NCBI GenBank assembly: GCA_963702845.1
Contig: OY969763.1
Location: 2,176,001-2,240,000, forward strand
Reading direction: 5' to 3'
From: an uncultured Verrucomicrobiae bacterium
GTDB taxonomy: Bacteria; Verrucomicrobiota; Verrucomicrobiia; Limisphaerales; Palsa-1400
Length of the DNA stretch: 64,000 nucleotides
Positions 1,987 through 25,072 of the stretch are shown here, piece after piece. Within the stretch, counting starts at the first letter, position 1; every line of letters begins with the position of its first letter. A program made the position numbers and the translations under genes. Below the pieces are notes generated by a model, which did no database searches, was not told the origin of the DNA, and was given only the letters and a program-made list of their open reading frames with translations.

Positions 1987-1997
1987 AGTGAAATGAA

Positions 1998-6625: not shown

Positions 6626-6726
6626 ATCGAGCGAGTAAATCTTACAGAAGAAGACGGGCAGTCAATGGTAAGTTGGGCATACGTCACGGCACGGGCGTAT
6701 CTCATTTTTTTGCAGGCGTCCAGATG

Positions 6727-6832: not shown

Positions 6833-6873
6833 AAAAAGTGAGATGCGCCTTCGCGGCAGCGGCTTGCTTATGC

Positions 6874-7000: not shown

Positions 7001-7024
7001 TTCAACATGGGACTTCGGCTCGAA

Positions 7025-8443: not shown

Positions 8444-8470
8444 AAAAATAAAGGATTCCTTTTTTGGCGG

Positions 8471-8505
8471 TTAAAGTTGTTTAAAGAAGTTTAAAGAAGT
8501 TTAAA
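8471..8505. repeat. 10-bp tandem repeat (TTAAAGAAGT, about 3.5 copies)
   Basis: ttaaagttgt ttaaagaagt ttaaagaagt ttaaa between the two terminase-like genes. Confidence 0.7.
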
Positions 8506-9238
8506 TCGTAGGGGTGATGGTGGTTGTTTTCGCGGGTTCGAAGTTTAAATCGGCGGCGATTTCGGATTTCACACTTGAGATTTGAGATGGCACGGGATTT
8601 GGGGTGTTGAAGCGCGGTGGCAGACCAAGGTCGGCAGCGATGACGGCGTAACCGGCAGCGGAGGTGGTTGGCCGGAATTGACTGGGTTGTGCTTTTTGTT
8701 TTTTCGCGATTTCGCCCTGGAGCTTTTGCTGGCGATAAGCGTTTCGGGTATGGGCACTGACGGAGCGCGAGAGGCGGAAGAAGTGCATCGGATCGGACTG
8801 AAGTTGTTGTTGCAGGTTTTCGATGCTGAAGGCTTTCATGAGTTTGGCGAGCTGAGTGGCCATGAAGAGATCGTTGAGCTGATGAAAGGACGCGGAGTTG
8901 GTGGCGCCGAGTTCGCGCAACAAATGGATATTAGCTTCGGATTGGGTGCGGATGATTTCGAGTTCCTGGCGGGAGTCGAGCCAGATGCGGTAGCCGGAAC
9001 GAGCCCATTTGGAGATGTTTGGGCCGTTGATGCCGTGGTGGCCCATTTGTTCGAGCTGGGAAATTATTTTGGAATAGCCAATGTTGTCGGCAAGGGATTG
9101 GTTGATGAATTCGCGAGCTTCGGTTGGAAGTCGGGAGATTTTGCTGGCGGGATGAGGACGAGGGATGCGAGGGATTGGTGTTTGTTTAGCTGCCGGTAAG
9201 TTATTTGTGGCAGTCGGATTTTCGGTTTGTGTATTCAT
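8501..9238 (-). CDS. DUF3486 / Mu gp27-like (small-terminase-like) protein
   Basis: SKISRLPTEAREFINQSL...YSKIISQL...ISKW HTH-like N-terminus; directly upstream of the large terminase. Confidence 0.65.
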   Translation of the reverse strand: MNTQTENPTATNNLPAAKQTPIPRIPRPHPASKISRLPTEAREFINQSLADNIGYSKIISQLEQMGHHGINGPNISKWARSGYRIWLDSRQELEIIRTQSEANIHLLRELGATNSASFHQLNDLFMATQLAKLMKAFSIENLQQQLQSDPMHFFRLSRSVSAHTRNAYRQQKLQGEIAKKQKAQPSQFRPTTSAAGYAVIAADLGLPPRFNTPNPVPSQISSVKSEIAADLNFEPAKTTTITPTI

Positions 9239-9396
9239 ATTAGTTAATTTATGAGGACAAGTGTAACAACGTCACTTGGACAAAGGCTGTCCAAGTGAAA
9301 AAATTGTTTGAAAATTCTTTTCTGCGGAAAGGAGTTGAAGATTAGGCGGTTACGGCAAAAGCAAGGGTCAAGCGCGATTTGATTTCTGGCAGATGG

Positions 9397-9472
9397 TCTC
9401 GCTAAGTCCGCTAAGGCCGCGAAGAAGGTTTTCGGATTCTTTCCTTCGCGAATCTTTGCGGACTTCGCGAGA
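9397..9472. repeat. Imperfect inverted repeat (CGCxAAG-type REP)
   Basis: TCTCGCTAAGTCCGCTAAGGCCGCGAAG versus the reverse complement of CTTCGCGAATCTTTGCGGACTTCGCGAGA. Confidence 0.6.
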
Positions 9473-9497
9473 TATCTCTCCAACGTCCAGCGCGATT

Positions 9498-9609
9498 TGT
9501 TGCGCTTGATTCGCAGCGGCAGCAGAACAATAGTCTGCTCAACCAATATGAACCAACCGTTCGTATATCAAAATTACCGCGACACCCCGTCGCATAATCA
9601 TAGTTAGCT
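9498..9609 (+). repeat. Platform repeat copy 1 (attI-like; leader ORF 9548-9607)
   Basis: TGTTGCGCTTGATTCGCAGCGGCAGCAGAAC...CGCATAATCATAGTTAGCT; near-identical to copies at 11774, 13514, 22077. Confidence 0.92.
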
Positions 9610-9616
9610 GAAAACT

Positions 9617-9925
9617 ATGCGACGAGACTTGCTCCTAACGGCGATAATGGGTTTCGCCCTATGCATTTTCAGCTTCGCTGTATCACTGGCCAGGCCTACA
9701 GACTTCGGCCCGCTAAGTCTTGGAATCGCAAAGGCCGAGGAATCTTATGGACTGTCCCGCGAGGGTAGAGACATGCTTGATTCACATGCTGAGAACCTAT
9801 ATCGCGAGTACAGTTCTGAGGTGAGCACGTATTCTACCGCTTGGTACATCGCTCTAGGCGGACTGTTCATCATGTCCTCCAGCTGTCTTATGTTGTATGT
9901 GTACCATCGAAAAAAGAGCAGCTAA
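9617..9925 (+). CDS. Gene cassette: small two-TM membrane protein
   Basis: Preceded by core GTTAGCT (9603); stop overlaps the complementary inverse core AGCTAAC (9920-9926). Confidence 0.7.
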   Translation: MRRDLLLTAIMGFALCIFSFAVSLARPTDFGPLSLGIAKAEESYGLSREGRDMLDSHAENLYREYSSEVSTYSTAWYIALGGLFIMSSSCLMLYVYHRKKSS

Positions 9926-9942
9926 CCAGAGCGCTTCAGCGC

Positions 9943-11598
9943 CTATGAGGTTTGTCAATACGTAGTGTGCGTCGATGATAGTTTTTTTGGGGTTGATCGC
10001 GCGGAGCGCAGTGGAACGAAGCGCAGTCGCGCGCGGCAGGCGGTTGGACATTGGTTCAATCCGCACCTGTTGTTCTTCTCGAGTCTCCGCTTATCTGTTC
10101 CTCTTCAAAGTTCCTTTCTTATTTCTCTCAAAGCAGGTTGCGTGAAGTTTGCTGCATCGGTGTCGCCGCGTTTTGTGTGTCGGGAGTTTGTCCCGCACCA
10201 GCTCCTATCCGGACAGTTGAGATAAGACTCAACGCCCACTGTGTCTTACTTGCCTGACTGCGGCGACCGGGGAGTCCGCCCCTTCTAACGGACGGATGAA
10301 CGCAAGGTTCACCAGCTGAAGCTACGGACTGGACTCGCCCGATCGCAAATTGTTTCACGCTCTTAACTCTGGAGGTTCTACTCACGAAAAAATTAAATGT
10401 GGTTCACACGCCGACCCAGCCGAGGTCTGCCATGGTGCAACGGCCGGTTCGCCAGCGCCAGAGGTCCACGGCCAGTTGCCGGGCAAGGGCAATGACAGTT
10501 TTCTTCTTCATGGCCGTGCCGGCGGCAAGTTTGGTTTTCATTTTAAGTGCGGCCTTCCACCCCGGTTGCCACATCAGAAAACGCCAGACCGCTTCCACCA
10601 GGATCGCTCTGACTCGTCCGTTGCCCATGCGATCGATGCTGCCGACGCGCCGTTTGCCTCCTGAACTGTGTTCGCCCGGGCAACATCCGGTGTAGCTGCC
10701 AATCTGTTTGCGATTGTGGAAGCGCTGCCAGTCGCACACTTCGCCTTCCAGTGTCACAAGAGTGATCTCGCCAAGGCCCTTGGGCCGTGGTTGTTCTTTG
10801 ACCCGCGCAATCAGTTCCTCTTCCAGTTCCTGCCGTTGTGTCTCCATGGCGACGAGGACCTCGCGGAGCTTTTCGAGAACACTGAGCAGCCACGGATCGA
10901 GGGTGGAAAGTTTTTTCCAGTTGCGCGCTCCCCACCAGCGATGGGGCAGTTTGACGTGGCTGTATTCGGCGGCTTGGCCGTGACCGCGATTGGCGAGCAT
11001 GCGAATGGCTTTGTTGAGGAACTGTCTTCGTCGCGTGCCTTCGCGCTGGCGCTGCTCTTTGTCCGAAGGAATGCGGATGGGTGCAAGTTCGTTGATGTTG
11101 CCATCAACCCAGCGAGAGAGGCGCAGGCAAAGAGCGCGCGCGTCCAGCTTGTCGGTCTTGCGCTGGCCGTTGAGGGCAATCGGCGTGATCAAAAAACTTT
11201 GCGCACCGGCGGCGACCAGTTCGCGATGGAGCACGAAGCCGAACCCACAGCTTTCCTGCACGCAGAAAACTTGCAGGCCTTCGCTGGTCCACTTCTGAAC
11301 CTGGGCGATGAGTTGCTCACGGCTGAATTTGCGTGGCGCTTGGGGTGAAGCGTGATCACGTTGGGCTACCGCCATGATGAACTCCAGATGCACGTCCAGG
11401 CCAAGCTTGAGAGCCGGTTTGCCGGCAAGCAGCACAGGACGTGGCAAAGGCTGGCGCGGCGGCACGTTTGCCAGCTTGCCCGCGGCAGGCACGCTGGTTA
11501 GGGTTGGGACTGTCATGTGGGGTTTGAGTAAATATGTTTTCATTTTCAAAAACATCGTGACCCCGTGTGGGGCTGCGACTCAACCCTTCATGACATCT
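9943..11598 (-). mobile_element. IS110-family insertion sequence
   Basis: Transposase plus ~460-bp downstream non-coding region; both ends share a CT dinucleotide (9943-44, 11597-98); TTGACA near the right end. Confidence 0.8.
10404..11555 (-). CDS. IS110-family transposase/recombinase
   Basis: DEDD RuvC-like domain: GLDVH, QESCGFG, KTDKLDARAL; Tnp20 domain YTGCCPGEHSSG, GNGRVRAILVEA. Confidence 0.93.
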   Translation of the reverse strand: MFLKMKTYLLKPHMTVPTLTSVPAAGKLANVPPRQPLPRPVLLAGKPALKLGLDVHLEFIMAVAQRDHASPQAPRKFSREQLIAQVQKWTSEGLQVFCVQESCGFGFVLHRELVAAGAQSFLITPIALNGQRKTDKLDARALCLRLSRWVDGNINELAPIRIPSDKEQRQREGTRRRQFLNKAIRMLANRGHGQAAEYSHVKLPHRWWGARNWKKLSTLDPWLLSVLEKLREVLVAMETQRQELEEELIARVKEQPRPKGLGEITLVTLEGEVCDWQRFHNRKQIGSYTGCCPGEHSSGGKRRVGSIDRMGNGRVRAILVEAVWRFLMWQPGWKAALKMKTKLAAGTAMKKKTVIALARQLAVDLWRWRTGRCTMADLGWVGV

Positions 11599-11609
11599 GA
11601 CGGCCGCCG

Positions 11610-11768
11610 CTAAGAACCCCATTTCCAATCGCGGATCTCCGGCATGTCGTCGCCGTGCTCGCGGATGTAATGTTTGTGTTCCATGAGTTTGTTTTGGATG
11701 GCCTGTTTGGCGTAGGCGGCCCGCGCGCCCAGTTGCGGCAGGCGGTCGATCACGTCGGCGAAGAGATG
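11610..11768 (-). pseudogene. Displaced copy of the last 159 bp of xfp
   Basis: Matches 22661-22819; 11635-11768 identical; 6 mismatches confined to the last ~25 bp. Confidence 0.95.
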
Positions 11769-11773
11769 CGTTC

Positions 11774-11860
11774 TGTTGCGCTTGATTCGCAGCGGCAGCA
11801 GAACAATAGTCTGCTCAACCAATATGAACCAACCGTTCGTATATCAAAATGACCGCGACA
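11774..11860 (+). repeat. Platform repeat copy 2 (3'-truncated, fused in-frame to downstream gene)
   Basis: Same sequence as other copies up to GACCGCGACA, then diverges. Confidence 0.92.
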
Positions 11861-13305
11861 GCTATTGGAGGCGGTCGGCGGCAGGTCTGGGACTGATGGG
11901 ATGGTTGCTAGCGGCTATCACCGGAAGCGGGCTTTCCCGAGCCGAGGTCGGAGGAAGCGAAGCGAAAAATCCCGTTCTAAAACCAACGTTGCACGGGGTG
12001 GTTCTGACCACCAATAGCGTTCCGATTACCAACGCCACCGTGACGATTAAGAGAATGCTGGCCGGACGCGGAGCCGTGTATGTTTCCGATGCGCCAGAAT
12101 GCAACCGGCAGGCAATGACGAAGGCCGATGGGAGTTTTGCCTTTGAGGGTTTGGCAGAGAACGCGAAGGTTGTGGCCGTGGTCACCGCGCCCGGCTACGA
12201 ACTGGAAACGGTATACACCGCGCGTGACAACCTGCCAGCAGGGTTTTGGTCGCATCCGGCTGCTGCCCAGGCTTTGGAAATTAAGATGCTCCCGGCACCA
12301 GCCGGAGACAATCCACAGCAAACGGTTCACGGACGCGTCGTGAACGCTGATGGCAAACCGGTGGCGGGAGCGACGATCCTGGTTCATATGCTCCATACGG
12401 AGCGTGATTGGCACTCAGGAGGCGGGACGGCGTTCACCGACCAGCAGGGTAAATTTGCTTTTCGACCCAGAGAAAATATTATCGCCTGTGATTTTACCAT
12501 CGAGGCGGATGGTTGCGTGTCACGGAGTTTTTCTGAAGTCCATCCGGGTCTCGGCACGAACATATACCAATTAAGCCAAGGTACCCGCCTCACTGGCCGC
12601 TTACTGAAAGACGGCCAGCCCGTGCCGGATGCCGGGATCGGAATTTACGATGTTAAAGGAGTAGGTTTGCTCAATAATTTTTCAACAGTCACGGATGGGA
12701 ACGGGAGGTTTACTTTTTCAGGCCTTCAGGCACACGAGGAATTCTATTTATTTGGCATCATGCGGTCACTGCGGGAACTTGGCGCGTTGCCCCGGCAGCA
12801 CATCAAAACCGGGGACGACGGCACGCGCATCGAACTGGGAGATTTGAACCTCGTAAAAGGCTATACAATCTCCGGCAGGGTGCAGATGCCGGATGGCAAC
12901 TCAACCCGTGTTGCGGCGTTCACGCTGGCCCGAACGGAACTCACTCCGCCGACCGATCATGCGCCGACCAAGCAGGAAGAGAGCAACCGATCCTTTTACG
13001 GACTGGAGCATTCATTTGACAACTGGCGGGCCGACCCCGGAGCAGACGGAAAGTTTGAATTCACCGGCGTGCCTGGCGAAACCGTTTCCATTTTTTTGAT
13101 GTTGAAACCGTTCGACATGGTATCGCCACGAAATATTAGCAGCGACGGGAAAGGATTCCGGTTGTTGGGAATGGTGGTGAGCAACAAGATCGATTTGGTC
13201 ATCGAGCTTGAGCCGCACAGTGGACAAGTTTTTCCTCCAGCCCGGGACTATTTGGTGTTAAGCCGACAGCCGTTGGAGGGAGCGGAGGCGGCTGTTGCAA
13301 AATGA
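11824..13305 (+). CDS. Secreted carboxypeptidase-regulatory-like (beta-sandwich) repeat protein
   Basis: Repeated V/I-x-G-R-V-x-x-x-DGKPV-x-GA and T-D-x-x-G-x-F-x-F motifs; hydrophobic N-terminal segment. Confidence 0.75.
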   Translation: MNQPFVYQNDRDSYWRRSAAGLGLMGWLLAAITGSGLSRAEVGGSEAKNPVLKPTLHGVVLTTNSVPITNATVTIKRMLAGRGAVYVSDAPECNRQAMTKADGSFAFEGLAENAKVVAVVTAPGYELETVYTARDNLPAGFWSHPAAAQALEIKMLPAPAGDNPQQTVHGRVVNADGKPVAGATILVHMLHTERDWHSGGGTAFTDQQGKFAFRPRENIIACDFTIEADGCVSRSFSEVHPGLGTNIYQLSQGTRLTGRLLKDGQPVPDAGIGIYDVKGVGLLNNFSTVTDGNGRFTFSGLQAHEEFYLFGIMRSLRELGALPRQHIKTGDDGTRIELGDLNLVKGYTISGRVQMPDGNSTRVAAFTLARTELTPPTDHAPTKQEESNRSFYGLEHSFDNWRADPGADGKFEFTGVPGETVSIFLMLKPFDMVSPRNISSDGKGFRLLGMVVSNKIDLVIELEPHSGQVFPPARDYLVLSRQPLEGAEAAVAK

Positions 13306-13446
13306 GGATTCAAGCGCGACCACAGTCGCGCATTCGCCTGATCCTGCACGAATGAAATCTGGAGTAGAAGAGTAAGTGGCGTAGATCGCGCTGTGGGGTT
13401 GCAATTTTGAAATCAGATTGATGAAGAGCGCCTCGTTGGTCTGCCG

Positions 13447-13517
13447 CTACGCGCTCCATTTCCAATCGCGGATCTCCGGCACGTCGTAGCCGTGCTCGCG
13501 GATGTAATGTTTGTGTT
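13447..13517 (-). pseudogene. Displaced copy of the last 71 bp of xfp
   Basis: Matches 22661-22731 with 4 mismatches; joins platform 3 at a shared TGTT. Confidence 0.93.
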
Positions 13518-13625
13518 GCGCTTGATTCGCAGCGGCAGCAGAACAATAGTCTGCTCAACCAATATGAACCAACCGTTCGTATATCAAAATGACCGCGACA
13601 CCTCGTCGCATAATCATAGTTAGGC
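13514..13625 (+). repeat. Platform repeat copy 3 (attI-like; leader ORF 13564-13623)
   Basis: Ends CGCATAATCATAGTTAGGC. Confidence 0.92.
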
Positions 13626-13643
13626 CACTCCACACGCTTTGCT

Positions 13644-14021
13644 ATGCTCGACCTCGCCATTGCATCCAAAGAGAGACACGACCGCTTCGTTCAGCGCGTT
13701 GTCGCTTCACGGGAGGTTTGGGGCCTGAAGAACGCAGACGGATGGGCTTGCACAGCCTCGTCGTCGGACGGCACAGAGGACAGGAGCGTTGTGCCTTTCT
13801 GGTCGGACCGCGCCTACGCCAAGCAGTGCGCGAAGGATGATTGGTCAGATTACGAGCCGACACCGATTCCTTTGGAGTTGTTTGTAGGTCAGTGGTTGCC
13901 CGGCATGGCTGCAGATAGTTGTCTTGTCGGCACGAATTGGAACGTGCAGCTTTGTGGTCATGAGATTGAGCCGTCGGAGTTGCGGCAGGAGATTGAGAGG
14001 CACGATGGACACGCGGCCTAA
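13644..14021 (+). CDS. Gene cassette: DUF2750-like protein
   Basis: RFVQRVVASREVWGL, VPFWS, WLPGM, LVGTNW; bounded by GTTAGGC and GCCTAAC. Confidence 0.75.
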   Translation: MLDLAIASKERHDRFVQRVVASREVWGLKNADGWACTASSSDGTEDRSVVPFWSDRAYAKQCAKDDWSDYEPTPIPLELFVGQWLPGMAADSCLVGTNWNVQLCGHEIEPSELRQEIERHDGHAA

Positions 14022-14108
14022 CTATGCGCTGCAGCGAACCCGGCCATCGCGCTCTGGTTGCAATCCACGTGCCTCGTGGGCCGGGTCGCTGAGCTTGGGT
14101 CGTTCGGC
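14016..14108 (+). other. attC site (complete, 93 bp)
   Basis: GCCTAAC-TATGCGCTGCAGCGAACCCGGCC...GGCCGGGTCGCTGAGCTTGGGTC-GTTCGGC; imperfect palindrome with extrahelical bases. Confidence 0.9.
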
Positions 14109-14112
14109 CAAC

Positions 14113-15276
14113 ATGCGTATGCACACCAAATCCATCGTCCGCACTCTTCTCCTCACCGGAGTTCTTATCGTTCAGCCGCAGTTGTTCGCGCAGGAGAAAT
14201 CCCGCCACATTCTTCCAGACGATCCAGCCAAGGCTTGGGCCGAGGTCGAAAAAGTTCACCAAGCATTGAGACCACCGGATGATTGGCGGTCGCACGAACC
14301 GGCGGCGGAACGGGTAGCTGAGTTTCAAAAGCAGGTTCGTCAAACAGCGGTGTCTTTCGCCGACAAAGCTCAGGAGTTTATTGAGCGTTTTCCTACCAAC
14401 GAGAACGTCGGTGACGCTCGCATTACGGTTGTTCACGCGTTGAGCCATGCCGTAGCGGCGGGGGATGCAGAAGCGGAGAGGCGGATTGCGACGTTTGTCT
14501 CCACAGTTCTGGCCGACAGAAGCATCCCGGAAGATGGCCGCGCTGGAGTTTTGCTTTATTCAGGGAACGCAGCGTTTATGAAGAAAGTCGGGATGCGGTT
14601 GTTCACTGAAGGGTTGGGCAAGCTGAACGACGAATTTGAGAACGAGAGCATCGAGAGCATGCGCGCCGCGCTGAAGCAGTTTCCGTCCAATTCCATGATT
14701 TTCACCATGCTCGTCGCCGTCGCCCAGCGTTCGACAGGCGAGCGACAGAAGGAGTTGGCCACGGAGATTATCGGCGCGCCCGGCGCACCGACGGGCGCGA
14801 AGACCTTAGCGAATCATCTCCTGAAAGGGACGAAGCCGTATCAGGTGGGACAGCCCCTGGATATTCGTTTCACCGCGCTGGATGGGCGCGAGGTGGATCT
14901 GGCGAAGCTGAAGGGCAAGGTCGTGCTGGTGGAGTTTTGGTCCACGACCTGCGGACCGTGCATCGCTGAGATGCCAAACGTGAAAGCGGCTTACCAGAAA
15001 TTGCACGACCAGGGATTGGAGGTCGTGGCGATTTCGCTCGATGAGAAGGAAAGTGCCTTGCGGCGCTTCATCAAAGAGAAGGTGCTACCGTGGCCGCAGC
15101 ATTTCGACGGCAAGGGTTGGGAGAACCAATTTGCCGTGCGATACGGAATTTTTAGCATCCCGACGATGTGGCTGGTGGACAAGCGTGGCAATTTGCGGCA
15201 GACCAACGTTCGCGGCGCCCTTGAGCAGCGCATCACATCACTGCTTGATGAGCGGACATCTCCCACGCCAAAATGA
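14113..15276 (+). CDS. Gene cassette: TlpA-family thiol-disulfide oxidoreductase
   Basis: Signal peptide; LKGKVVLVEFWSTTCGPC (CxxC), SIPTMWLVDKRG; bounded by GTTCGGC (14102) and GCCGAAC (15302). Confidence 0.85.
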   Translation: MRMHTKSIVRTLLLTGVLIVQPQLFAQEKSRHILPDDPAKAWAEVEKVHQALRPPDDWRSHEPAAERVAEFQKQVRQTAVSFADKAQEFIERFPTNENVGDARITVVHALSHAVAAGDAEAERRIATFVSTVLADRSIPEDGRAGVLLYSGNAAFMKKVGMRLFTEGLGKLNDEFENESIESMRAALKQFPSNSMIFTMLVAVAQRSTGERQKELATEIIGAPGAPTGAKTLANHLLKGTKPYQVGQPLDIRFTALDGREVDLAKLKGKVVLVEFWSTTCGPCIAEMPNVKAAYQKLHDQGLEVVAISLDEKESALRRFIKEKVLPWPQHFDGKGWENQFAVRYGIFSIPTMWLVDKRGNLRQTNVRGALEQRITSLLDERTSPTPK

Positions 15277-15301
15277 ACATGGACGACTTCAGGAATAACT
15301 G

Positions 15302-15323
15302 GCCGAACAAACCGGATGCACTG
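15302..15323 (+). other. attC remnant (left arm only)
   Basis: GCCGAAC-AAACCGGATGCACTG; no matching right arm found. Confidence 0.6.
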
Positions 15324-15364
15324 CTTTAGCGCTTTCTTTATTATTTCAGTCTTTGCGGCGTAGG

Positions 15365-15398
15365 CTGTTTGGCGTAGGCGGCACGCGCGACCAGTTGC
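15365..15398 (-). pseudogene. 34-bp internal remnant of the xfp 3' region
   Basis: 32/34 identical to 22754-22787. Confidence 0.8.
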
Positions 15399-15445
15399 CG
15401 CGCGGCAAGACCGCGACCAGTCAATGGCAAGTTGAGCTGACGTGT

Positions 15446-18400
15446 TTACTGTGACGCGCGGTAATACCCTTGCGGCGAATTTAAAATGTTGTCGTCGACA
15501 ATTTGCCAGGAACCGTTTGTGTTCAGGAATGTCGTGAGCGTCGTCCAATTCAGCAAATCTGTGCTGCGTTGGATTGAGTTCGTTGAGCCGGGATTTCCAC
15601 TTCCATTGATTTGGACGCGTCCATCGACGAATTGGACAATTTTCTCGAAGAAAACCGGCGCGACGGTGGGGATGATTTTCATGGCTAGAATTCCGTTGTT
15701 GGAATCCAACGCATAAACACGATCGTTGCCAAAATCGACGGCGCCGACACCGAAGGCGTTGGTATTTGCGGTGGCAAAATTTGTTTGTGCGATGAGAACG
15801 GGCGCGCCGTTGGTTAGAGTCAAATCGTAGAGTTGAAGATTTTCGGGCCTGTTCAGGCTAATGCCGGCGAGTAGATTCATTTCCGCGCCGACGCCGATCG
15901 GTGAAATCGCCAACGGGAAACCGGCATAGTTCGCCAGAGTTGTGCCGGTGCTGCCAGAATAGGAAACATTCAATAAAGACAGCCCGTTGGCCTTGCCCCA
16001 AAATGTGTTGTCCGCGCCGAAGGTGAGCCCCAATCCAAAGTTGCCTGAGGAAGAATTCGCAACGTTAATCGCGCGTGAACTGAAGGTCACACCGTCGGAT
16101 GTGGTCAGTAACGCTACGCTGAGACCGCTGCGTGATCCGATCAGGACCTGGGTGTTCGTGCCGGAACCGCGCACAACAAAAGTATCGCCCCAGCGTTCGT
16201 TATCGCCGGGAGCCGGATCGCCGGAAAACATCAGGACCGGCGGCGCGCTCGCATCGTCACTTCCCCAACGATAAAGACGAAACGGCGTGGTAGCTCCGAC
16301 GGTGGTTAGATTTCCGGCATAGATAGCACCGTCGTCCCCTGCACCGATCATGAGTAGATTATAGGTTCCGCCCGTAACCACCGATCCATCGACATTCATC
16401 GTCCAGAGGTCAGCGCCCGAATCGCCATCGAGCACGTTGATTTGCGTTGAGGGGTTGCGGCTGACCACGATGACATGATTTCGCGAAGCGTTGTATGCCA
16501 TGCCGCGATCAGTTTGTCCGGTGCTTGCCAGATACGGCCTCGATCCGCCACCAAGGCTCCAAAGCTTGGTCCAACCTGCGGCATGAAATGTCGGGTTAAC
16601 GACAATCGTCGCAGTAGCGCTGATGACGCCACCGACGTCGTTGCTGATGGTTACGAAATAGTTCCCTGCTTGGGCGGTTGAGATGTTCGGCAAGACTAAA
16701 CTGGACGCTGTTGCTCCAGGCAACGGACTGCCGTTGAAATTCCATTGGAAGAGCAGCGTAGGACTTCCAATGGCACCGACGGAGAGCGTGACCGTTTTAC
16801 CTTTGATTACATTCTGGCTCGACGGCTGCGCTGTGATGAATGGTTTTATCACGGTGACCGTCAAGGTGGCGTCGGAACTTGTTGCCGAGCCGTAAGCATT
16901 TGTCACAACGACGGAGTAACTGCCGGCGTCGTTTGTCGTTAGATTATTGCGGGAATAGCTGGAGCCAGTTGCACCGGAAATATCGGCGCTATTGAATCGC
17001 CATTGATAACTCAAGGGCGGACCGCCCGTCGCAATGACACTGAAGGTCGCAGTCGCGGCAAAATTCTGGGTCTGGCTTTGCGGCTGTTGCGTGATGCTTG
17101 GGACGGGAATGATCACTGTGAGAACAGCGTTCGAACTTGTCGCTGTGCCAACGGTGTTGCTGGCGATGAGCGTATAAGCACCCGCATCACCGGGTTGTAT
17201 ATTCGCATTGCTATAACTCGTATCTGTTGCGGCGGCGATGTTCGTCCCGTTGAGCTGCCATTGATACGTGGGTGTTGGGGTTCCAGACGCCGCTGCAGAG
17301 AAGGTCGCGCCGTTACCTGCAGTAACAGTCTGGCTTTGCGGCTGGGCCGTAAATGACGGCGCAGTCGGAATAGAAGAGAGAGTGGTTGCGCTGGCTTGCG
17401 TCGAGATGGCGGAGGTTCCCAGGTAGTTTGTGGCACGCACCGTATAATAATAGGTCGTGTTGGCAGCGAGGCTGATATCGCTGAAGGCGGTAGCGTTGAC
17501 TGGCAGGGTCGCGATATCGGTGAAAGGTCCGCCCGATATAAAACTGCGCGCAACAACGTATCCTGCTTCGTTGGTTGCGTTGTTGGCCCACGTAAGGTCG
17601 ATCTGCGAACTGCTCACTGGAAGCGCAATCAAGCTGGCCGGTTTCGCCGGCACGGACGTCGGATAAACGAACATCAATTTAATTCCGTCGGCCATCGGCA
17701 CGTTTCCGTCCAACGTCGCGTCCGTCATGCGAATCGTCGTTGTCCCACTGCCAAATGGAAATCTCCCGACATAACTCCAAATGCCGGCGTTGGTCGTTTG
17801 GTCCGCATAAACGGTCTGCGCACCAGTCGCGCAATTCACAATAACCGGAACGCTCGCTGACGCATCCGCCCGGAATGGATGCCATTGAAAAACGTTGTAA
17901 TCACCGGCAACGAGGACCTTTGGCGAAAACTCCGCGTATGCCGTTCCAGAGCCTGTTGCCTTTTTGCGATAGCTGATGCCAAACGCGTTCGTGTCCGTCC
18001 CTGTTTCACCCAAAAATGTCACGGTGGCGCCTGTGTTGCAGAAGACAGTTGTAATCGGCGTCCACGAACCGACGAAGTTCGCGCTCGCTTCATCGATGCA
18101 AATATTGTTCACGACATTGGAAAAAATCCCCACGGTGGACTCCTTAACTTTTGTCCACTGCGTTGGATTGTAGAGTTCGACACGAAACCAATTCGCTGAA
18201 TTGAACGGCGCGGGGCCCGGGCGATTCACGTCGGCCATCATGTAATCAACGAACTCCGTGATGTCATTCGGCGGAGTTAACGTGGTGCCGCTGGTGCCGT
18301 TGTAGATCTCGCGCATGTACCACACCGGCTTGATCGAATTCGTCCAATAGATCGTCTGCCCATTGATGACGCTGGAAGTGCCGACGAGGCCGGCGTAAAA

Positions 18401-19171
18401 CGCGTTGTAATTCGTGTCCGTCCAATTAATCGCCGCGCTGGCGCTGCCCTTCGTTGCCGCGTGATGGTAAACCTGCGGGATGACGACGTCCGACCAGTAG
18501 CCAAATTCCCTGTATGGAAAAGACGAATGCAGACCCAGCGTGTCGAACGGATTATGCGCGATAAACTTCGTCGGGAACGCGGCGCGCAATTGCGAGCACA
18601 TATACCAGGCTTGGACGGGACCGTTCGTGATTCCTGGATGCCCGGCTTCCCATTCCGCTTCCGCATCCCAGATAAATCCATCGCCGCCGACACTGAAGAC
18701 ATATCTCGCGACGTTGTTTTCTCCATCGAGGTCAGAACCGTACGAGCGATTAGACCCAAAAATCAGCAGGCCAGCGTTGTGCGCCTTTTGCACCAGGCTC
18801 GGGCTGAACTGCGCGGCAGCGGTGTTGTTGGTCGAAACGTTGCCCGAACCGGTCCAAAGCATGTTGCTCGTGCCGGCTTTGACGATGACGTGCGACATCC
18901 CTTGCGATTTGATGTAGGCGAACATGCTGTCGACGTTGGTCACGCCCGGGACATTTCCGCCGAGTTGATTGGTGGCGCTCGAAAGGATATACAGCCACGC
19001 GCCGGTTCCGACATTGGCCGGATCAAACTGACCGTACCAACAATCGCGCAACACGGCCGACGCTGGCCCGCACGACAAATGCAGGATGAGCAGGCAAAGA
19101 AGTTTTAAGGAGAGGCGGCGCAAAGCGGTTGGGACGCTTTTGAGCCGGCAGCGGCATTTTAACGATGACAT
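15446..19171 (-). CDS. Large secreted multidomain protein (putative glycoside-hydrolase-like barrel, golvesin-like, FN3, 3 Ig domains, DUF4623-like propeller, C-terminal sorting domain)
   Basis: Signal peptide; GFIWDAEAEWE; FN3 IDLTW...YYYTVRATN; three ITxQPxSQ...YQW...GxYxV Ig repeats; IQRSTDLLNW...YYRA C-terminus. Confidence 0.75.
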   Translation of the reverse strand: MSSLKCRCRLKSVPTALRRLSLKLLCLLILHLSCGPASAVLRDCWYGQFDPANVGTGAWLYILSSATNQLGGNVPGVTNVDSMFAYIKSQGMSHVIVKAGTSNMLWTGSGNVSTNNTAAAQFSPSLVQKAHNAGLLIFGSNRSYGSDLDGENNVARYVFSVGGDGFIWDAEAEWEAGHPGITNGPVQAWYMCSQLRAAFPTKFIAHNPFDTLGLHSSFPYREFGYWSDVVIPQVYHHAATKGSASAAINWTDTNYNAFYAGLVGTSSVINGQTIYWTNSIKPVWYMREIYNGTSGTTLTPPNDITEFVDYMMADVNRPGPAPFNSANWFRVELYNPTQWTKVKESTVGIFSNVVNNICIDEASANFVGSWTPITTVFCNTGATVTFLGETGTDTNAFGISYRKKATGSGTAYAEFSPKVLVAGDYNVFQWHPFRADASASVPVIVNCATGAQTVYADQTTNAGIWSYVGRFPFGSGTTTIRMTDATLDGNVPMADGIKLMFVYPTSVPAKPASLIALPVSSSQIDLTWANNATNEAGYVVARSFISGGPFTDIATLPVNATAFSDISLAANTTYYYTVRATNYLGTSAISTQASATTLSSIPTAPSFTAQPQSQTVTAGNGATFSAAASGTPTPTYQWQLNGTNIAAATDTSYSNANIQPGDAGAYTLIASNTVGTATSSNAVLTVIIPVPSITQQPQSQTQNFAATATFSVIATGGPPLSYQWRFNSADISGATGSSYSRNNLTTNDAGSYSVVVTNAYGSATSSDATLTVTVIKPFITAQPSSQNVIKGKTVTLSVGAIGSPTLLFQWNFNGSPLPGATASSLVLPNISTAQAGNYFVTISNDVGGVISATATIVVNPTFHAAGWTKLWSLGGGSRPYLASTGQTDRGMAYNASRNHVIVVSRNPSTQINVLDGDSGADLWTMNVDGSVVTGGTYNLLMIGAGDDGAIYAGNLTTVGATTPFRLYRWGSDDASAPPVLMFSGDPAPGDNERWGDTFVVRGSGTNTQVLIGSRSGLSVALLTTSDGVTFSSRAINVANSSSGNFGLGLTFGADNTFWGKANGLSLLNVSYSGSTGTTLANYAGFPLAISPIGVGAEMNLLAGISLNRPENLQLYDLTLTNGAPVLIAQTNFATANTNAFGVGAVDFGNDRVYALDSNNGILAMKIIPTVAPVFFEKIVQFVDGRVQINGSGNPGSTNSIQRSTDLLNWTTLTTFLNTNGSWQIVDDNILNSPQGYYRASQ

Positions 19172-19290
19172 GGGTTTGCTGCCTATCGTAAATGGCCCGC
19201 TGAGTGAGTCAACTTAAAGCCTTGTTCACGTGGTAAGAATATGCGAACTGTTGGCGCAGATTAATTGTTAGGCGTGACCAGTTCCACCAC

Positions 19291-19620
19291 ATGAATCAAG
19301 TGCATGACCTAAAGGACTTGCTGAGAAACGTTGTTGCGGAGGGGGATTTCGGGCTGACGCTGCGCACAGGGGAGTCAACTGTGGTGCATACGAAAGCGGG
19401 ACCGAAGCGACTCGAAGGAACGAATCCGACGCACGAAGAGATTACGGACTTCCTCCGGCGAGTCTCGGGTTCCAGAGGCATGCGCGAGTTTCGCAACAGC
19501 GGAGTCACCCGGTTCATAGTTCCGTTTGAGGGCGGAGTTCGTTTGGTGGGAGCCGCCCGATTGGAAAAGGACGACATCCACGTTGAGATACGCAGGATGA
19601 TTGGAAATGACAAACGGTAG
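19291..19620 (+). CDS. Small protein resembling an isolated PilT N-terminal domain
   Basis: LKDLLRNVVAEG..LTLRTGE pattern, no ATPase part; preceded by GTTAGGC at 19267. Confidence 0.45.
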   Translation: MNQVHDLKDLLRNVVAEGDFGLTLRTGESTVVHTKAGPKRLEGTNPTHEEITDFLRRVSGSRGMREFRNSGVTRFIVPFEGGVRLVGAARLEKDDIHVEIRRMIGNDKR

Positions 19621-19640
19621 AACCGGAACGCGAGTCTGAA

Positions 19641-20051
19641 ATGCTACGGTCCATTATTGTGTTTGTGAGATATGTCGCCGCAATTGTTGTGGCGTACATA
19701 GTTTCTTTTGCCGTGTTCTTCGGTGGAGCAGCATTGGTATACGTCATTTTTAAGAATTGTCCTGAGTGGATGATGAGGTTCGCTATGGGAGCTCAGTTTG
19801 CTCTGTTTGCGGCCGTTGGCTTTTGTGGGGTAATCTCAGGCACTCTGTGTCTGGAGAAAAAAGGTCGGCGCCTTGGTTCGGTTGTGTTGTCATTGTTAGG
19901 CTTGGCGTTCTATGCGTGGTTTACTCTTACGACGGAAGGGGATGAGCCGGGAGGAAATGTGTGGTTTCCTTACGTTTGGCTCTTGCCGTTAGCTATCGGC
20001 GGCTCGCTGGGATTTCTATTCTTTTTCCGGCAGCAATTGACACGCGATTGA
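19641..20051 (+). CDS. Four-TM hypothetical membrane protein
   Basis: Four hydrophobic segments; ATG start. Confidence 0.6.
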   Translation: MLRSIIVFVRYVAAIVVAYIVSFAVFFGGAALVYVIFKNCPEWMMRFAMGAQFALFAAVGFCGVISGTLCLEKKGRRLGSVVLSLLGLAFYAWFTLTTEGDEPGGNVWFPYVWLLPLAIGGSLGFLFFFRQQLTRD

Positions 20052-20107
20052 TTAGCGCTGGCGGTTTCGTCGCGCCCTCACCGGTGGCGTCCATTTACTG
20101 CACGTTT

Positions 20108-20950
20108 TTAACTCGTCGTCACCGTCCACCCCCGCGCGAATAAGGTATTTTTGCTGGTGACACCGGCGGCGCTGGGGGCGGCGTTGGTGCCGTTGCAAAT
20201 GACGTTGCCGTTGTGCGCGCCGTTGGTGACGAGTTGGGCGAGGAGATTGTCGACTTTGGCGCTGTCCCAACCGCAATCGATGGCGGTGATGTCGAGGGTG
20301 GCGGCGGGAATAGTTGGAACAACCGTCCAGGCGGTGCCGTTGATGTAGAGCGCGCCGAGGCTGGCGGGCAAGGCGGGCAATGTGGTGAACGGGCACTGTC
20401 CGGCGTTGAGTTGTGTCAGCGCGGTCCCGGCCAAAGCGGGCAAGGCAGTGAGGCCGCTTTGCGACACGTTGAGCTGGACCAAGGTCGCGGGCAAGGCAGG
20501 CAAGCTGGTGAGGTTCGCGCAGGCGGTGATGTCGAGGTCTTGGAGCGCGGGCGGCAAGGCCGGGATGGAAGTGTAGAGGGCGGCGGCCATGGAAAGGGAG
20601 ATGAGCGCGGCGGGGAAAGTGCAGAGCAAAGGTTCGGGCGCGCCGGCGCTGTCGAGGAGGAGGGACTGAATGGTGCTCGGGAGCGTGAGGTTGGTGACGG
20701 CGCTGCCGGTGAAGCTGATGTCCACGCAAGCGCTGAAGGTGCCTTCGGAAAATTTTATGGTGGTGGCCTCATGACCGTCGGCGATGATTTCGCTGATGCC
20801 GTCGGGAAAAGAGCCGCCGCTGAAAATGATGGGGTGATTGCTTCCCGGCGACCAGCTGATGAAGTCAGCGAGGGTGCCGGTGGGCGTGCTGCTGGGAACG
20901 GCTTCCAAGCCGCGTTCGCGCAAATATTTTCTGATTTCTTCGATGGTCAT
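20108..20950 (-). CDS. Leucine-rich repeat protein (LPxLPxxL type)
   Basis: Repeats LTSLPALPATLVQLNV, FTTLPALPASLGALYI; start placed downstream of the REP. Confidence 0.7.
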   Translation of the reverse strand: MTIEEIRKYLRERGLEAVPSSTPTGTLADFISWSPGSNHPIIFSGGSFPDGISEIIADGHEATTIKFSEGTFSACVDISFTGSAVTNLTLPSTIQSLLLDSAGAPEPLLCTFPAALISLSMAAALYTSIPALPPALQDLDITACANLTSLPALPATLVQLNVSQSGLTALPALAGTALTQLNAGQCPFTTLPALPASLGALYINGTAWTVVPTIPAATLDITAIDCGWDSAKVDNLLAQLVTNGAHNGNVICNGTNAAPSAAGVTSKNTLFARGWTVTTS

Positions 20951-20968
20951 GGTGGTATTGGTGGAAAA

Positions 20969-21047
20969 GGTAGGGACGCGTTCCACCGCGTCCCCAATAT
21001 TATTTTTGTGAAGGAAAGAATGGGACGACGTGGAAGTCGTCCCTACC
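20969..21047. repeat. Inverted pair of GTAG-type REP hairpins
   Basis: GGTAGGGACGCGTTCCACCGCGTCCC and GGGACGACGTGGAAGTCGTCCCTACC. Confidence 0.75.
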
Positions 21048-21049
21048 GG

Positions 21050-21670
21050 TTACGGTTTGCAACTGACCACGACTTCATTGCTGAAGTTGCCGACGACCTG
21101 GTCGTTGACCATGAACTTGGCGCGGTATTCGCGCAACTCGGCTTTGCCCACGGCGAGCATGGGCCGGTTATCGAGGTAAGGCGAATGCAGCGGAGTCGCC
21201 AAACGGGTGAAGTCCGGTTCATCGCCGCGTTTGCATTCGATGTAAATGGCTTCGCTCAGGCCGCGCTTGGCCCGGATTTCGACAATGCCACCGCCTTTAT
21301 CCACGGCGCTCAATTCGGGCGCGGTAGTGTTCAGGTCATCGGTGATTTCAGGGCCGACGATGCCGAGGGCGTCGGCGATGGCCGGTGTCAAATTGCTGGA
21401 AGCGCGGGCTTTTTTGGCGGCGAGCCGGGCGTGGGTTTCGGCGCCGAGACGACTCATCGTTTTGGCGTCGGCGGCGGCTTTGGCGGCAGCTTTGGCCGCG
21501 ACGTTGGCGGAGAACTTGGTGTGAATATCGGTGTTATCAGCCGTAATCGGGGCCGTATCACCGACGACTAACCCAAGAGTAGCCGCATTGGCCAGAAGCT
21601 GAGTCTTGAAGTTATCGTGCCAGGCCAGGAAGGCATCGTCGCCACGGGGAATGAATCCATCTCTTTGCAT
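21050..21670 (-). CDS. Hypothetical protein (helical N-terminus, FN3-like C-terminus)
   Basis: FIPRGDDAFLAWHDNF; SPYLDNRP...REYRAKF...VGNFSNEV; clean GC-rich ORF. Confidence 0.7.
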   Translation of the reverse strand: MQRDGFIPRGDDAFLAWHDNFKTQLLANAATLGLVVGDTAPITADNTDIHTKFSANVAAKAAAKAAADAKTMSRLGAETHARLAAKKARASSNLTPAIADALGIVGPEITDDLNTTAPELSAVDKGGGIVEIRAKRGLSEAIYIECKRGDEPDFTRLATPLHSPYLDNRPMLAVGKAELREYRAKFMVNDQVVGNFSNEVVVSCKP

Positions 21671-21740
21671 ATGTTGTTTATTTCTAAGTGTTTATACCAT
21701 TGTTTAGGACTAGTTTTTGGAGGTTGGGAGGATTTGTCCA

Positions 21741-21966
21741 GAGCCGCCGAACAACCGTACAGCGGCGCTGTGCAACTGTTCGGAGCGGCTGAACAACAGT
21801 ACAGAACCGCTGTACGGTTGCACGGCGGCGCTGAACAACAGTACCCGAGCCGCCGTCCAATTGAACGCCGCCGCCGAACAACCGTACAGAGCGGCCGTAC
21901 AACAGGTACGGAGCCGCTGTGCAATTGAACGGAGGGATTGTACAAACGGACGAAGGAAGTACAACG
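21741..21966. repeat. Degenerate 21-bp tandem array (about 10-11 units)
   Basis: Units such as gagccgccgaacaaccgtaca, gcggcgctgtgcaactgttcg, gagcggctgaacaacagtaca, gagccgctgtgcaattgaacg. Confidence 0.85.
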
Positions 21967-22076
21967 TCGCGCCCAAGCTCCGGATACCGATTCCGGAACG
22001 CCCACCCGTGCTTTTTTGAACCCGCCACATTTTCCGCCCGCGTTTGTGCCAAAGGCCCAAGGTGAGGTCAAGTGTT

Positions 22077-22188
22077 TGTTGCGCTTGATTCGCAGCGGCA
22101 GCAGAACAATAGTCTCCTCAACCAATATGAACCAACCGTTCGTATATCAAAATGACCGCGACACCCCGTCGCATAATCATTGTTAGAC
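22077..22188 (+). repeat. Platform repeat copy 4 (attI-like; leader ORF 22127-22186)
   Basis: Ends CGCATAATCATTGTTAGAC. Confidence 0.92.
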
Positions 22189-22199
22189 CACTGTGCCTT

Positions 22200-22544
22200 A
22201 TGACATGGAAGCGATGCTTCACAAAGAAAATCTTGGGACTCGTGTTAGCGGCCATCATTTTCTTAGGGCTGCTCACGGAATTCATCGGCGCACCGCAGGT
22301 CCACAAGGTGGTAGTCGCCACGATGCCCATCAAACCATCTTTCACGGAGATTTCGCGTGATAACACCCAGCGTGTTGCTGGTCCGGTTTATTACTGCAGT
22401 GCGGTAGCGTATGCTCCGTTTCTCGTTCGGGTCGATTACGGTTGGAACGCAGGCGGCGAGACCGGCGGAGGTGCGAGTGCGTTTTACTTTTGGATTTTTG
22501 GCATCACATTTCGAGTTCACGAGTTTGGGCATTGGATGTCATGA
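22200..22544 (+). CDS. Gene cassette: hypothetical membrane-anchored protein
   Basis: Bounded by GTTAGAC (22182) and GTCTAAC (22555). Confidence 0.65.
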   Translation: MTWKRCFTKKILGLVLAAIIFLGLLTEFIGAPQVHKVVVATMPIKPSFTEISRDNTQRVAGPVYYCSAVAYAPFLVRVDYGWNAGGETGGGASAFYFWIFGITFRVHEFGHWMS

Positions 22545-22554
22545 TTTACCAAAA

Positions 22555-22645
22555 GTCTAACAAGAGCGCTGCAGGCACGCGCGGGATTCCCGCTCTGTTC
22601 CATACCGAACGCTCGCCCCGCTCTGCCTGAGCGCTGTCGTTAGAC
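22555..22645 (+). other. attC site (complete, 91 bp)
   Basis: GTCTAAC-AAGAGCGCTGCAGGCA...TGCCTGAGCGCTGTC-GTTAGAC imperfect palindrome. Confidence 0.88.
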
Positions 22646-22660
22646 TGCTTCGCACTTTCC

Positions 22661-25072
22661 CTACGCGCTCCACTTCCAATCGCGCATCTCCGGCATGTCG
22701 TCGCCGTGCTCGCGGATGTAATGTTTGTGTTCCATGAGTTTGTTTTGGATGGCCTGTTTGGCGTAGGCGGCCCGCGCGCCCAGTTGCGGCAGGCGGTCGA
22801 TCACGTCGGCGAAGAGATGGAATCGGTCCAGGTCGTTCAAGACGACCATGTCAAAGGGCGTCGTGGTGGTGCCTTCCTCTTTGTAGCCGCGCACGTGGAT
22901 GTTGCTGTGATTGGTGCGGCGATAGGTCAGCCGATGGATCAGCCACGGATAACCGTGAAAGGCAAAGATGACCGGCTTGTCGGTGGTGAAGAGGTCGTCG
23001 AAATCCGCGTCGGACAATCCGTGCGGGTGTTCGCTGCACGGCTGGAGTTTCATCAGGTCAACGACGTTGATGACGCGGACTTTTAATTGCGGCAGGTGTT
23101 GGCGCAGGAGTTTGACGGCGGCGAGTGTTTCCAAAGTCGGAATGTCACCGGCGCAGGCCATGACGACGTCGGGCTCGGAGCCTTTGTCGTTGCTGGCCCA
23201 TTCCCAAATGCTGATGCCCGCGGTGCAGTGTTTGATGGCGGCGTCCATGTCGAGCCATTGCGGCGCGGGATGTTTGCCGCCCACGACGACGTTGACGTAA
23301 TTGCGGCTGCGCATGCAATGATCGGTCACGGAGAGCAAGGTGTTGGCGTCCGGCGGAAGGTAGACGCGGATGACTTCGGATTTTTTGTTCACGACGTGAT
23401 CGATGAACCCGGGATCCTGGTGGCTGAAGCCGTTGTGGTCCTGCCGCCAAACGTGCGAGCTGAGGAAATAGTTCAGCGATGCAATGGGCGCGCGCCACGG
23501 AATATGGCGAATGACCTTCAACCATTTGGCGTGTTGGTTGAACATGGAGTCGATGATGTGAATGAAGGCTTCGTAGCAACTGAACCAACCATGGCGGCCG
23601 GTGAGCAGATAACCTTCGAGCCAGCCCTGGCATTGATGCTCGCTCAAGACTTCCATGATGCGGCCGTCGGGCGAGACGTTTTCATCGGTGGGCAAGCGCT
23701 CCGCCATCCAGCAACGCTTGTCGACTTCGAAGGCAGCACCCCAACGATTGGAAGCGGTTTCGTCCGGGCTGAAGATGCGGAAGGTGTGTGAATTGTTTTT
23801 GAGAACGTCGCGGATGAAGTTGCCTTGGATCGTTGCCGACGAAACTTCGACATCGCCGGGTTTGGTCACTTTCACGGCGTAGTCGCGGAAATCCGGCATG
23901 CGCAGTTCGCGCAGGATCATCCCGCCGTTGGCATGTGGATTGGCGCTCATGCGGAGATTACCTTTCGGCGCAATCTCGGCGAACTCCTGTTTGAAAGCGC
24001 CATTCTTGTCGAAGAGTTCCTCCGGCTTATAGCTCTTCATCCAATGCTCGAGGATTTTGACGTGGCCAGGTTGATCCATATCGCCCATCGGCACTTGATG
24101 GGAGCGGAACGTGCCTTCGGTCGGTTTGCCGTCCACTTCTTTCGGTCCAGTCCAACCTTTCGGCGTGCGCATGATGATCATCGGCCACATCGGACGCGTC
24201 AGATCCTTTTTCACGCGCGCGTTCTGCTGGATGTCTTTGATTTCGGCGAAGACCGTGTCGAGCGTCGACGCCATCAGTTGATGCATCGTCTTGGGATCAT
24301 CGCCCTCGACGAAATATGGCTTGTAGCCGTAACCAACAAAAAGGCTTTCCAGTTCTTCCCGCGGAATCCGCGCAAGGAAACACGGCCCGGCGATCTTGTA
24401 GCCGTTGAGATGCAGAATAGGCAGCACCGCGCCGTCGCGAGCGGGATTAAGGAATTTGTTTGAATGCCAGCTCGTGGCCATCGGACCGGTTTCGGCTTCG
24501 CCATCACCGACCACACATGCGGTGATCAAATCTGGATTATCGAGCACCGCACCATAGGCGTGCGAGAGGGCGTAGCCGAGTTCGCCACCTTCGTGAATTG
24601 AACCGGGCGTCTCAGGAGCGACGTGGCTCGGGATACCGCCCGGGAACGAGAACTGTTTAAAGAGTTTGCACATCCCGTCTTCATCTTGCGCAATGTTCGG
24701 GTAAACCTCGCTGTAGGTGCCTTCGAGATAAGTATTGGCGACAAGACCAGGACCACCGTGACCGGGACCGGTGACGTAAATAATACTGAGGTCCCGCGCA
24801 TTGATAATGCGATTGAGGTGGACGTAGATAAAATTCAGTCCGGGCGTAGTGCCCCAGTGACCAAGCAGACGCGGCTTGATGTCCTCGCGTTTGAGCGGAG
24901 TTTTCAGCAAGGGGTTTTTGAACAGGTAGATTTGGCCGACGGACAGATAGTTCGCGGCGCGCCACCATGCGTCCATTTTCTTGAGTTGATCGGGCGTGAG
25001 AGGCCCGCCAGCGGCTTTGGGTTCTGGAACGCGACGGCCAGCGGAAAGACGTGGAGATTCGGTCAGTTTCAT
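22661..25072 (-). CDS. xfp: Phosphoketolase (xylulose-5-P/fructose-6-P)
   Basis: [67 protein letters not shown]. Confidence 0.97.

Follow-up and report, generated by a model that had tools for sequence, protein, structure and literature searches.

Within the genome of an uncultured Verrucomicrobiae bacterium (G000, the genome under study) is a variable insert of 16 kb (6675–22665), lying between purH (5069–6625) and xfp (22661–25072; gene names by Pfam), and within that insert are copies of a short sequence, termed here the ‘platform’, which appears to be an integron docking site that has been multiplied in the absence of its integrase. Positions, unless given as genome positions, are those of the 64,000-nucleotide stretch of DNA that was analysed, described here as the window (G000:C1:2176001-2240000), which is part of a single 6.03-Mb contig. 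An integron is a gene-capture system, with attI its docking site, and the integron model is one of a single attI together with a reservoir of silent cassettes. In G000 the multiplied unit would be instead the docking site itself, that is, and not just the cassette. As judged from sequence, it is well supported that a multiplied attI with independent cassette loading is real.

Platform copies and their cargo

An earlier note on this DNA had described four near-identical copies of the platform, starting at 9498, 11774, 13514 and 22077 and all opening with the same 16-mer. This is correct, with pairwise identities of 97.7–100% over the 87 bp common to all four and, among the three full copies, of 97.3–98.2% over 110 bp. 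So too is its pairing of the heptamers that open and close cassettes, as all four pairs are exact reverse complements. Copy 1 (9498–9605, + strand) consists of a putative promoter, a 19-codon leader (ATG at 9548), and attI, with crossover after G9603, and its leader terminates on the TAG of G|TTAG, where the bar indicates the crossover point. The associated cassette 1 (9604–9940, +) carries a 102-aa open reading frame (ORF; 9617–9925, no family match), an R'' box at 9920, and the left part of an attC. That attC is interrupted by an insertion sequence (IS) element of the IS110 family (9941–11599, ends approximate, − strand; transposase 10404–11555, NF033542, 171.7 bits versus a cut-off of 140), and its right half is largely deleted. 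The IS110-family element is present in the genome in six copies, 95–100% identical, with five of the six found, as judged by eye, at one position of attC-like sequence. In the IS1111-attC group, as cited in the available part of PMC11187229, an IS110-family element likewise is found at one attC position, a likeness that is one of insertion site alone.

Between this element and copy 2 (11774–11860, +) is a dead 3' stub of xfp (11619–11768, −; equivalent to 22670–22819, 98.7% identity), stubs such as this one, lying between units, having been overlooked by the earlier note. Copy 2 is truncated ahead of the simple site, only the 87-bp match being present, and its leader is in frame with a carboxypeptidase-regulatory-like-domain gene. 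In the resulting fusion gene (11824–13305, +) the native N-terminus has been replaced, i.e., homologues at 84–90% identity start with a different N-terminus, one of like length, and metagenome contigs match the region only from 11861/11864 onward. Neither the covariance model described below nor folding found an attC behind this fusion gene. As it is without a simple site and its gene is not followed by attC, copy 2 is not a loaded attI, and the earlier claim that each of the four copies is loaded consequently stands for copies 1, 3 and 4, and fails for copy 2. What copy 2 shows, rather, is an attI leader put to new use as the beginning of a non-cassette gene. A second truncated platform, at genome 181065–181115, is fused at its leader start to another gene.

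A further dead xfp 3' stub (13447–13517, −; equivalent to 22661–22731, 94% identity) is joined by a short overlap to copy 3 (13514–13621, +; crossover after G13619), which is followed by two cassettes. Cassette 3a (13620–14102, +) carries a DUF2750 ORF (13644–14021; PF11042, E 1e-33) along with a complete attC (14016–14108, −; 52.6 bits, E 3e-13; bottom-strand fold z −2.75). Contigs from two sediment runs pile up at this attC, their loose ends, which are diverse, falling at 14016 and at 14104–14110. Cassette 3b (14103–15308, +) carries a TlpA-like redoxin ORF (14113–15276) behind which attC has been reduced to its R'' (15302), a remnant without a fold (z +0.81). Next is a junction (15365–15433) in which an xfp stub (15365–15401, equivalent to 22754–22790) runs into a short duplicate of the boundary on the purH side, with 15418–15433 matching 6659–6674 at 15 of 16 bases (by eye, the match being under the BLAST threshold). 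A diverged fifth attI-like site (19213–19275, +; 49.7 bits, versus a decoy maximum of 12.1) heads ORFs of 109 and 136 aa, after which no attC was found by covariance model or folding.

Copy 4 (22077–22184, +; crossover after G22182) adjoins the intact xfp gene, and its left flank (21603–22076) is retained also at genome 5448935 (97%) and, partly, at genome 5709576 (94–96%). Cassette 4 (22183–22639, +) carries a 114-aa ORF (22200–22544, no family match) and is followed by a complete attC (22555–22645, −; 38.1 bits, E 8e-9; bottom-strand fold z −3.91). The earlier note had recognised two full attC sites, and both of these pass a covariance model that was built from 13 attC sites taken only from relatives' intI-linked arrays (here intI is the integron integrase gene and IntI its product). 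Both score best on the bottom strand, forming hairpins with an extrahelical base, versus 12.8 bits for the next-best, unrelated match of that model in the window. A complete attC is present in two of four expected places, and the window's three intact docks are of one sequence with different cargo.

A genome-wide family of attI-like sites without intI

The platforms of the window had been taken to be a local array of four, which they are not, as they belong instead to a genome-wide family. By BLAST there are 31 platform copies in G000 (subfamily A), 25 of which possess the left end while six possess only a 60-bp core, found behind other upstream halves. A second, more diverged subfamily, B, aligns with subfamily A and includes the window's site at 19213–19275. 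With a joint profile and a threshold of 20 bits, 74 sites are recognised in G000, grouped into 31 clusters, and no decoy scores above 12.1 bits. Several of these clusters are found among terminase, portal and primase/helicase genes, and others among ordinary genes. The attI-like sites outnumber detected attC sites, i.e., 74 versus about 40, and 33 of 39 mapped attC sites have an attI-like site on the same strand at most 6 kb upstream, a descriptive figure as the regions were chosen around attI sites. Back-to-back, divergent attI-like sites are seen at genome 1826857–1826917 (L035 3359–3420) and at genome 1717429–1717760.

Across genomes of the family, the joint profile gives 73 matches in G000, three in each of two fragmented same-genus genomes, and at most one in each of the other 28; four near-complete family genomes have zero to three, 150 genomes of the order have at most two each (36 candidates scored per genome), and a short attI pattern has 34 matches in G000 versus at most two in any of 300 further genomes from the class, with all of these counts favouring G000, from which both models and pattern were drawn, and many of the other assemblies being fragmented. 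Searching with the full platform by BLAST in 60 relatives yielded nothing, as did searching with exact 28–29-nt core patterns in genome and metagenome collections, and with the subfamily-B pattern in viral contigs.

The platform core is, on sequence grounds, an attI of the Limisphaerales integron clade, as indicated by homologues that are found adjacent to intI. In the integron loci of relatives, i.e., of Limisphaerales/Verrucomicrobiota, intI begins a few bases upstream of the homologous site, on the other strand, and at 11 of 12 intI loci the upstream region ends in or near such an attI site, the exception being one damaged locus. A two-unit form that is found beside intI (L052 and L054) scores 43.6 and 33.1 bits versus a profile constructed from G000 sites only. 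In a genome from outside of the training set (G128), two matches adjoin an intI 5' end, and at one metagenome locus (L126) the platform's exact right 19-mer is found upstream of a full intI, at a distance of about 270 bp. That 19-mer is present at 29 metagenome loci and one viral locus, 17 of these 30 displaying a complementary heptamer downstream, with two pairs being duplicates and the count having no chance control. Three metagenome loci (L098, L108 and L112) combine the right 19-mer and cassettes with no intI match in the approximately 2.4–3 kb upstream, and these would be orphan attI sites in other organisms.

In most copies the 19-codon leader ORF stops on the TAG belonging to the cassette core site. 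ORF-11 of attI1, as described in the available part of PMC8876359, likewise is a short ORF which extends across attI and has as its stop the TAG of the cassette core site. The platform leader differs in that it is 19 codons long and of unrelated sequence, and its function as a leader is one that we infer. The promoter, in the left 50 bp, is putative as well, having been recognised by eye as a −35/−10-like pair that is absent from five sites listed by a consensus scan. The left half of the platform, considered as a possible remnant of an intI 5' end, gave no match to such ends.

The earlier note had proposed that the platform is a multiplied attI with no intI nearby, and this is borne out both by the above-described attI homology and by a genome-wide search for intI. 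The best match in G000 to TIGR02249 is of 85.9 bits versus a cut-off of 265, the two best proteins being XerC/XerD-like, and remnants of intI were found neither by blastn nor by tblastn employing four clade IntIs (nothing else below E 0.25). A 444-aa ORF in the window (45490–46824) has a phage-integrase domain match and is not an IntI. Viral contigs contained no clade IntI, only one unrelated 36% fragment. The earlier note had proposed further that the docks are served in trans and that each first cassette is strongly expressed. With a source of IntI found neither in G000 nor in those contigs, and with a promoter that is putative, present-day service in trans and high expression are at most possible. 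Four of the 31 family genomes possess an intI above the cut-off, none of them of the same genus. In three near-complete family genomes five of six attI matches nonetheless adjoin intI 5' ends, this despite there being no strong intI match in those genomes, which indicates that decay of intI with retention of attI is common in the family.

Loading of docks and copying of platforms

That cargo is loaded at G|TT, as claimed in the earlier note, is backed by heptamer footprints and by the comparison of cassettes. Among subfamily-A sites with a GTT and an ORF (28 sites), 15 display the exact complement of the opening heptamer after the first gene, i.e., within −12 to +60 of its first stop codon, whereas 2000 permutations gave 2.6 on average and at most seven. 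None of 29 first cassettes, furthermore, is common to two A sites. Given these footprints, along with the lack of first cassettes in common, each dock was loaded separately, probably by IntI.

In the same-genus genome G001 the purH–xfp slot is empty, with the two flanks 23 bp apart (locus L128, positions 1–1477 corresponding to window 5198–6674 at 81%, and 1501–3430 to window 22666–24595 at 78%). The neighbour of the platform units, xfp, is the phosphoketolase gene, and the only intact copy in G000 that matches the stubs (by BLAST) is that at 22661–25072. As this sole intact copy sits at the slot, the purH–xfp slot, whether of G000 or of a related strain, is the origin of the stubs. The right flank plus xfp 3' end (22640–22819) is the source region for the stubs found upstream of 20 of the 25 left-end-bearing copies. 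A further genome, G002, contains an ectopic unit in which the same left flank is combined with a weak attI-like site, a pair of genes, and an xfp stub ending at 22713. Also in G002, an attC-like remnant (L129, about 600–645) was seen by eye, its GTT core overlapping the stop codon of the intact G002 xfp; the attC model gave no match there.

On the purH side the sequence ends (6672–6678 and 15431–15437) both run into a GTTRRRY heptamer, as in the empty G001 site, and the slot, as a post hoc idea, may have started as an IntI secondary-site insertion. Positions 6874–7000 and 19085–19211 are an 87% direct repeat, representing a stub of the 5' end plus upstream of a 1241-aa gene with immunoglobulin (Ig) domains, and this repeat suggests two stacked alleles of the whole slot. 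Within the insert as well are orphan terminase large- and small-subunit genes (7025–9238), the small subunit being Mu gp27-like and the large subunit having five close paralogues elsewhere in the genome. Upstream of the small-subunit gene is a palindromic repeat (9225–9320) with 27 BLAST matches in the genome. At 21050–21950 is a 206-aa gene that fits no known family and has a tandem array of 21 bp upstream, and paralogues of this gene (genome 1298, 1356, 2347 and 5448 kb) also adjoin attI-like sites. The window covers the replication terminus region, with the cumulative GC skew maximum found near 43000 (genome 2,219,000).

The joining of units by xfp stubs indicates a copying route other than IntI. 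The 20 stubs have five end points, i.e., 22711, 22714 (ten stubs), 22731 (two), 22788/9 (three) and 22818/9 (four). Their starts are at the cassette-side G|TT flank in seven cases, at the xfp stop in 12, and inside in one, that is, not at the G|TT flank in 13 of 20. Among 19 chosen regions are 20 duplicated blocks of at least 300 bp, with a crossover at a single end in seven cases and at both ends in none. The stubs are dead, with five of 20 singleton changes synonymous versus 22.5% expected (24 stubs), as is consistent with neutral decay, and at position 22685 all 22 covering stubs differ from the resident allele. The platform copies are mosaic, with 56 of 136 pairs of informative columns failing the four-gamete test (23 copies). 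The gene comEC is present in G000 but says little on transformation, as it is present also in 10 of 14 control genomes.

The account that is favoured here, and which we consider reasonably probable, is of copying by microhomology and homologous recombination, with IntI acting only at the crossover. One attI, without its intI, would have come to sit in the purH–xfp slot. Blocks, each consisting of flank, promoter, attI, cassette or cassettes, and a scrap of xfp, would have been stacked there in tandem, with the same blocks spreading elsewhere in the genome, in several cases to phage-like islands, through IntI-independent recombination. The copying would have involved microhomology joints, fusing an xfp stub to DNA just upstream of the promoter, as well as homologous exchange via repeats, probably with DNA of related strains. 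IntI, either in donor strains or before its loss from the lineage, would have put a different cassette at the G|TT of each copy, with the leader ORF then ending on a stop codon brought by the incoming cassette. Lacking a resident IntI, the arrays would freeze and then decay, i.e., by IS insertion, attC deletion and gene fusion.

A number of observations weigh against this account. Seven of the 20 stubs begin at the G|TT flank (22639–22645), most of them directly after attC, and these seven units, as bounded by crossover points, could have been mobilised as IntI cassettes. A classic attI-type cassette is present at genome 1700669, where a shortened platform comes immediately after an R'' box; attI directly behind R'' is seen both there and at genome 4286007, whereas in the window stubs intervene. 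No stub joint is more than about 30 bp from the putative −35 box, a clustering which random joints explain only if there is selection, and four-gamete failures can be produced as well by recurrent mutation. The footprint in subfamily B is weaker, i.e., six of 25 sites versus a mean of 0.8, with 16 of 41 being without a clean GTT or ORF. The attI-like match of the ectopic G002 unit also is weak, at 11 bits, and an intI could be located on an unassembled replicon, G000 being rated 89.8% complete. Several of these points are shared with an alternative in which it is IntI that spread the platform itself, with flank, xfp stub, promoter and attI together serving as an attI-type cassette that is excised (attC × attI or attI × attI) and then reinserted. 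The available part of PMC12901181 has attI-type cassettes as IntI1 substrates, with attI1-aadB-attI1 excised at 100%, and G000, besides its seven stub units and the unambiguous attI-type cassette at 1700669, has chains on one strand in which attI and attC are mixed (genome 175–183 kb, 1721–1733 kb and 4284–4319 kb). The 13 stubs starting away from the crossover flank nevertheless argue against such IntI-mediated spread, as do the duplicated blocks, none of the 20 having both ends at a crossover. Platform followed directly by flank, as expected of a freshly inserted empty unit, also is not seen (none of 31), and three copies retain 200–590 bp of original left flank at unrelated loci. Spread of the platform by IntI therefore strikes us as rather unlikely, though microhomology/homologous copying and IntI transfer of attI-type cassettes may both have acted.

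Other alternatives are less probable still. The sites might be in use today without IntI, with XerC/XerD of the host, or a different resident tyrosine recombinase, acting in its place, which we consider very unlikely. The genome contains XerC- and XerD-like genes, a mean identity of 93% marks the copies as young, and the left arm of the site presumably resembles a dif half-site; a dif-like motif had five loose matches, none of them a platform. IntI is close to XerCD as described in the available part of PMC4792948, which also, however, has XerCD as without the IntI-specific helix for single-stranded substrates. The partner sites, moreover, are hairpin attCs and belong to one family with those of relatives' intI arrays, the homologous site is beside intI in relatives, and the sites are scattered over both replichores with no significant orientation bias relative to replication (18 clusters head-on, 10 co-directional and three mixed; p 0.18). 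That the platform is instead the end of a cassette-carrying IS or miniature inverted-repeat transposable element (MITE) might be thought from 25 of 31 copies opening at nearly the same TGT and from IS110 adjoining two copies. The IS110, though, is an element in its own right that has inserted into attC, and the idea has been largely refuted, to the point of being highly improbable, by a left end that is variable (six copies with other upstream halves, and joints that retain 0–30 bp of flank), by the platform having no terminal inverted repeat, and by the lack of target duplication between left and right flanks. Mis-assembly, or the chimeric joining of cassette reads at a repeat, we find scarcely credible. 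No sequencing run was found that contains the stretch (best share 0.09), nor was any RNA run listed as containing it, and contigs of four runs as compared with 9300–23100 leave the platforms uncovered, which is evidence neither way. Mis-assembly was rejected given a single 6.03-Mb contig with clean two-replichore GC skew, variants and flanks that are each copy's own, the neutral decay of stubs, and the similar unit in G002.

Known systems and the meaning of the arrays

Limisphaerales chromosomal integrons (L046–L057, L081, L088 and L126) possess an attI of the same sequence family, the same G|TT crossover, and attC sites of the same family. These integrons differ in having one attI beside intI or its remnant, with 0–4 matches per genome, versus 74 sites and no intI in G000. 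Relative to a complete integron, the window array is without intI while attI with a G|TTRRRY crossover and bottom-strand attC are present, on sequence grounds only. The platform, that is, would function like an integron's attI/cassette promoter (Pc) platform without being a complete integron, there being no intI. The array resembles as well the clusters of attC sites that have no integron-integrase (CALIN), as no intI is nearby in the window. CALIN and their single-attC equivalents (SALIN) consist of attC sites and cassettes without intI, as results from intI loss or rearrangement, according to the available parts of PMC4889954 and bioRxiv 10.1101/2022.09.11.507474. The two complete attCs of the window are 8.4 kb apart versus a CALIN threshold of 4 kb, with at least two attC per cluster, and so would count as single sites; at other G000 loci at least two attC do cluster under that threshold. 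As far as the available parts of those sources go, the CALIN/SALIN definition is attC-based, whereas the arrays of G000 are attI-rich and would be invisible to it.

The earlier note viewed the layout as unfamiliar, a claim that requires qualification as parts of that layout have precedents, i.e., attI-type cassettes and a CALIN with its own attI. Unusual, attI-type cassettes (Partridge 2009 per the available part of PMC12901181) are rare, are found in class 1/2 integrons with intI, and are mostly short attI remnants. In G000, by contrast, there is a full attI plus putative promoter and leader, in dozens of copies, joined via host-gene stubs. Three unusual cassette types that the available part of the same paper describes (attI inside arrays, truncated attC, and IS-split attC) are all seen in G000, and a table of 26 attI-type cassettes in its supplement may bear on precedent. 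The Shewanella prophage M16-3, per the available part of PMC9892861, likewise has a second attI heading an intI-less array in a prophage, but with two attI sites and an intact intI on the same element rather than dozens of sites and no intI. A literature search, spanning few subscription journals and no supplements, found no description of a single genome bearing dozens of attI sites without intI. New in the window are a parental slot and its empty site, a similar unit in a sister genome, and the leader fusion.

A maintained ‘distributed integron’, consisting of dozens of putatively working promoter–leader–attI docks without an integrase, and loadable by a visiting IntI or, less likely, by host XerCD, is possible, and is an idea that we hold only tentatively. 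If true, then any dock would be loadable and every cassette would be expressed from first position, with the lack of a resident IntI sparing tandem attI arrays from the collapse that IntI would cause. The window provides a testable case, that is, with its defined empty site, its three intact docks, and cognate intI genes in relatives. More generally, as attI is not searchable in most taxa (PMC4889954; bioRxiv 10.1101/2022.09.11.507474, as available in part), some elements which now are classed as CALIN or SALIN may be, instead, attI-headed, self-expressing units.

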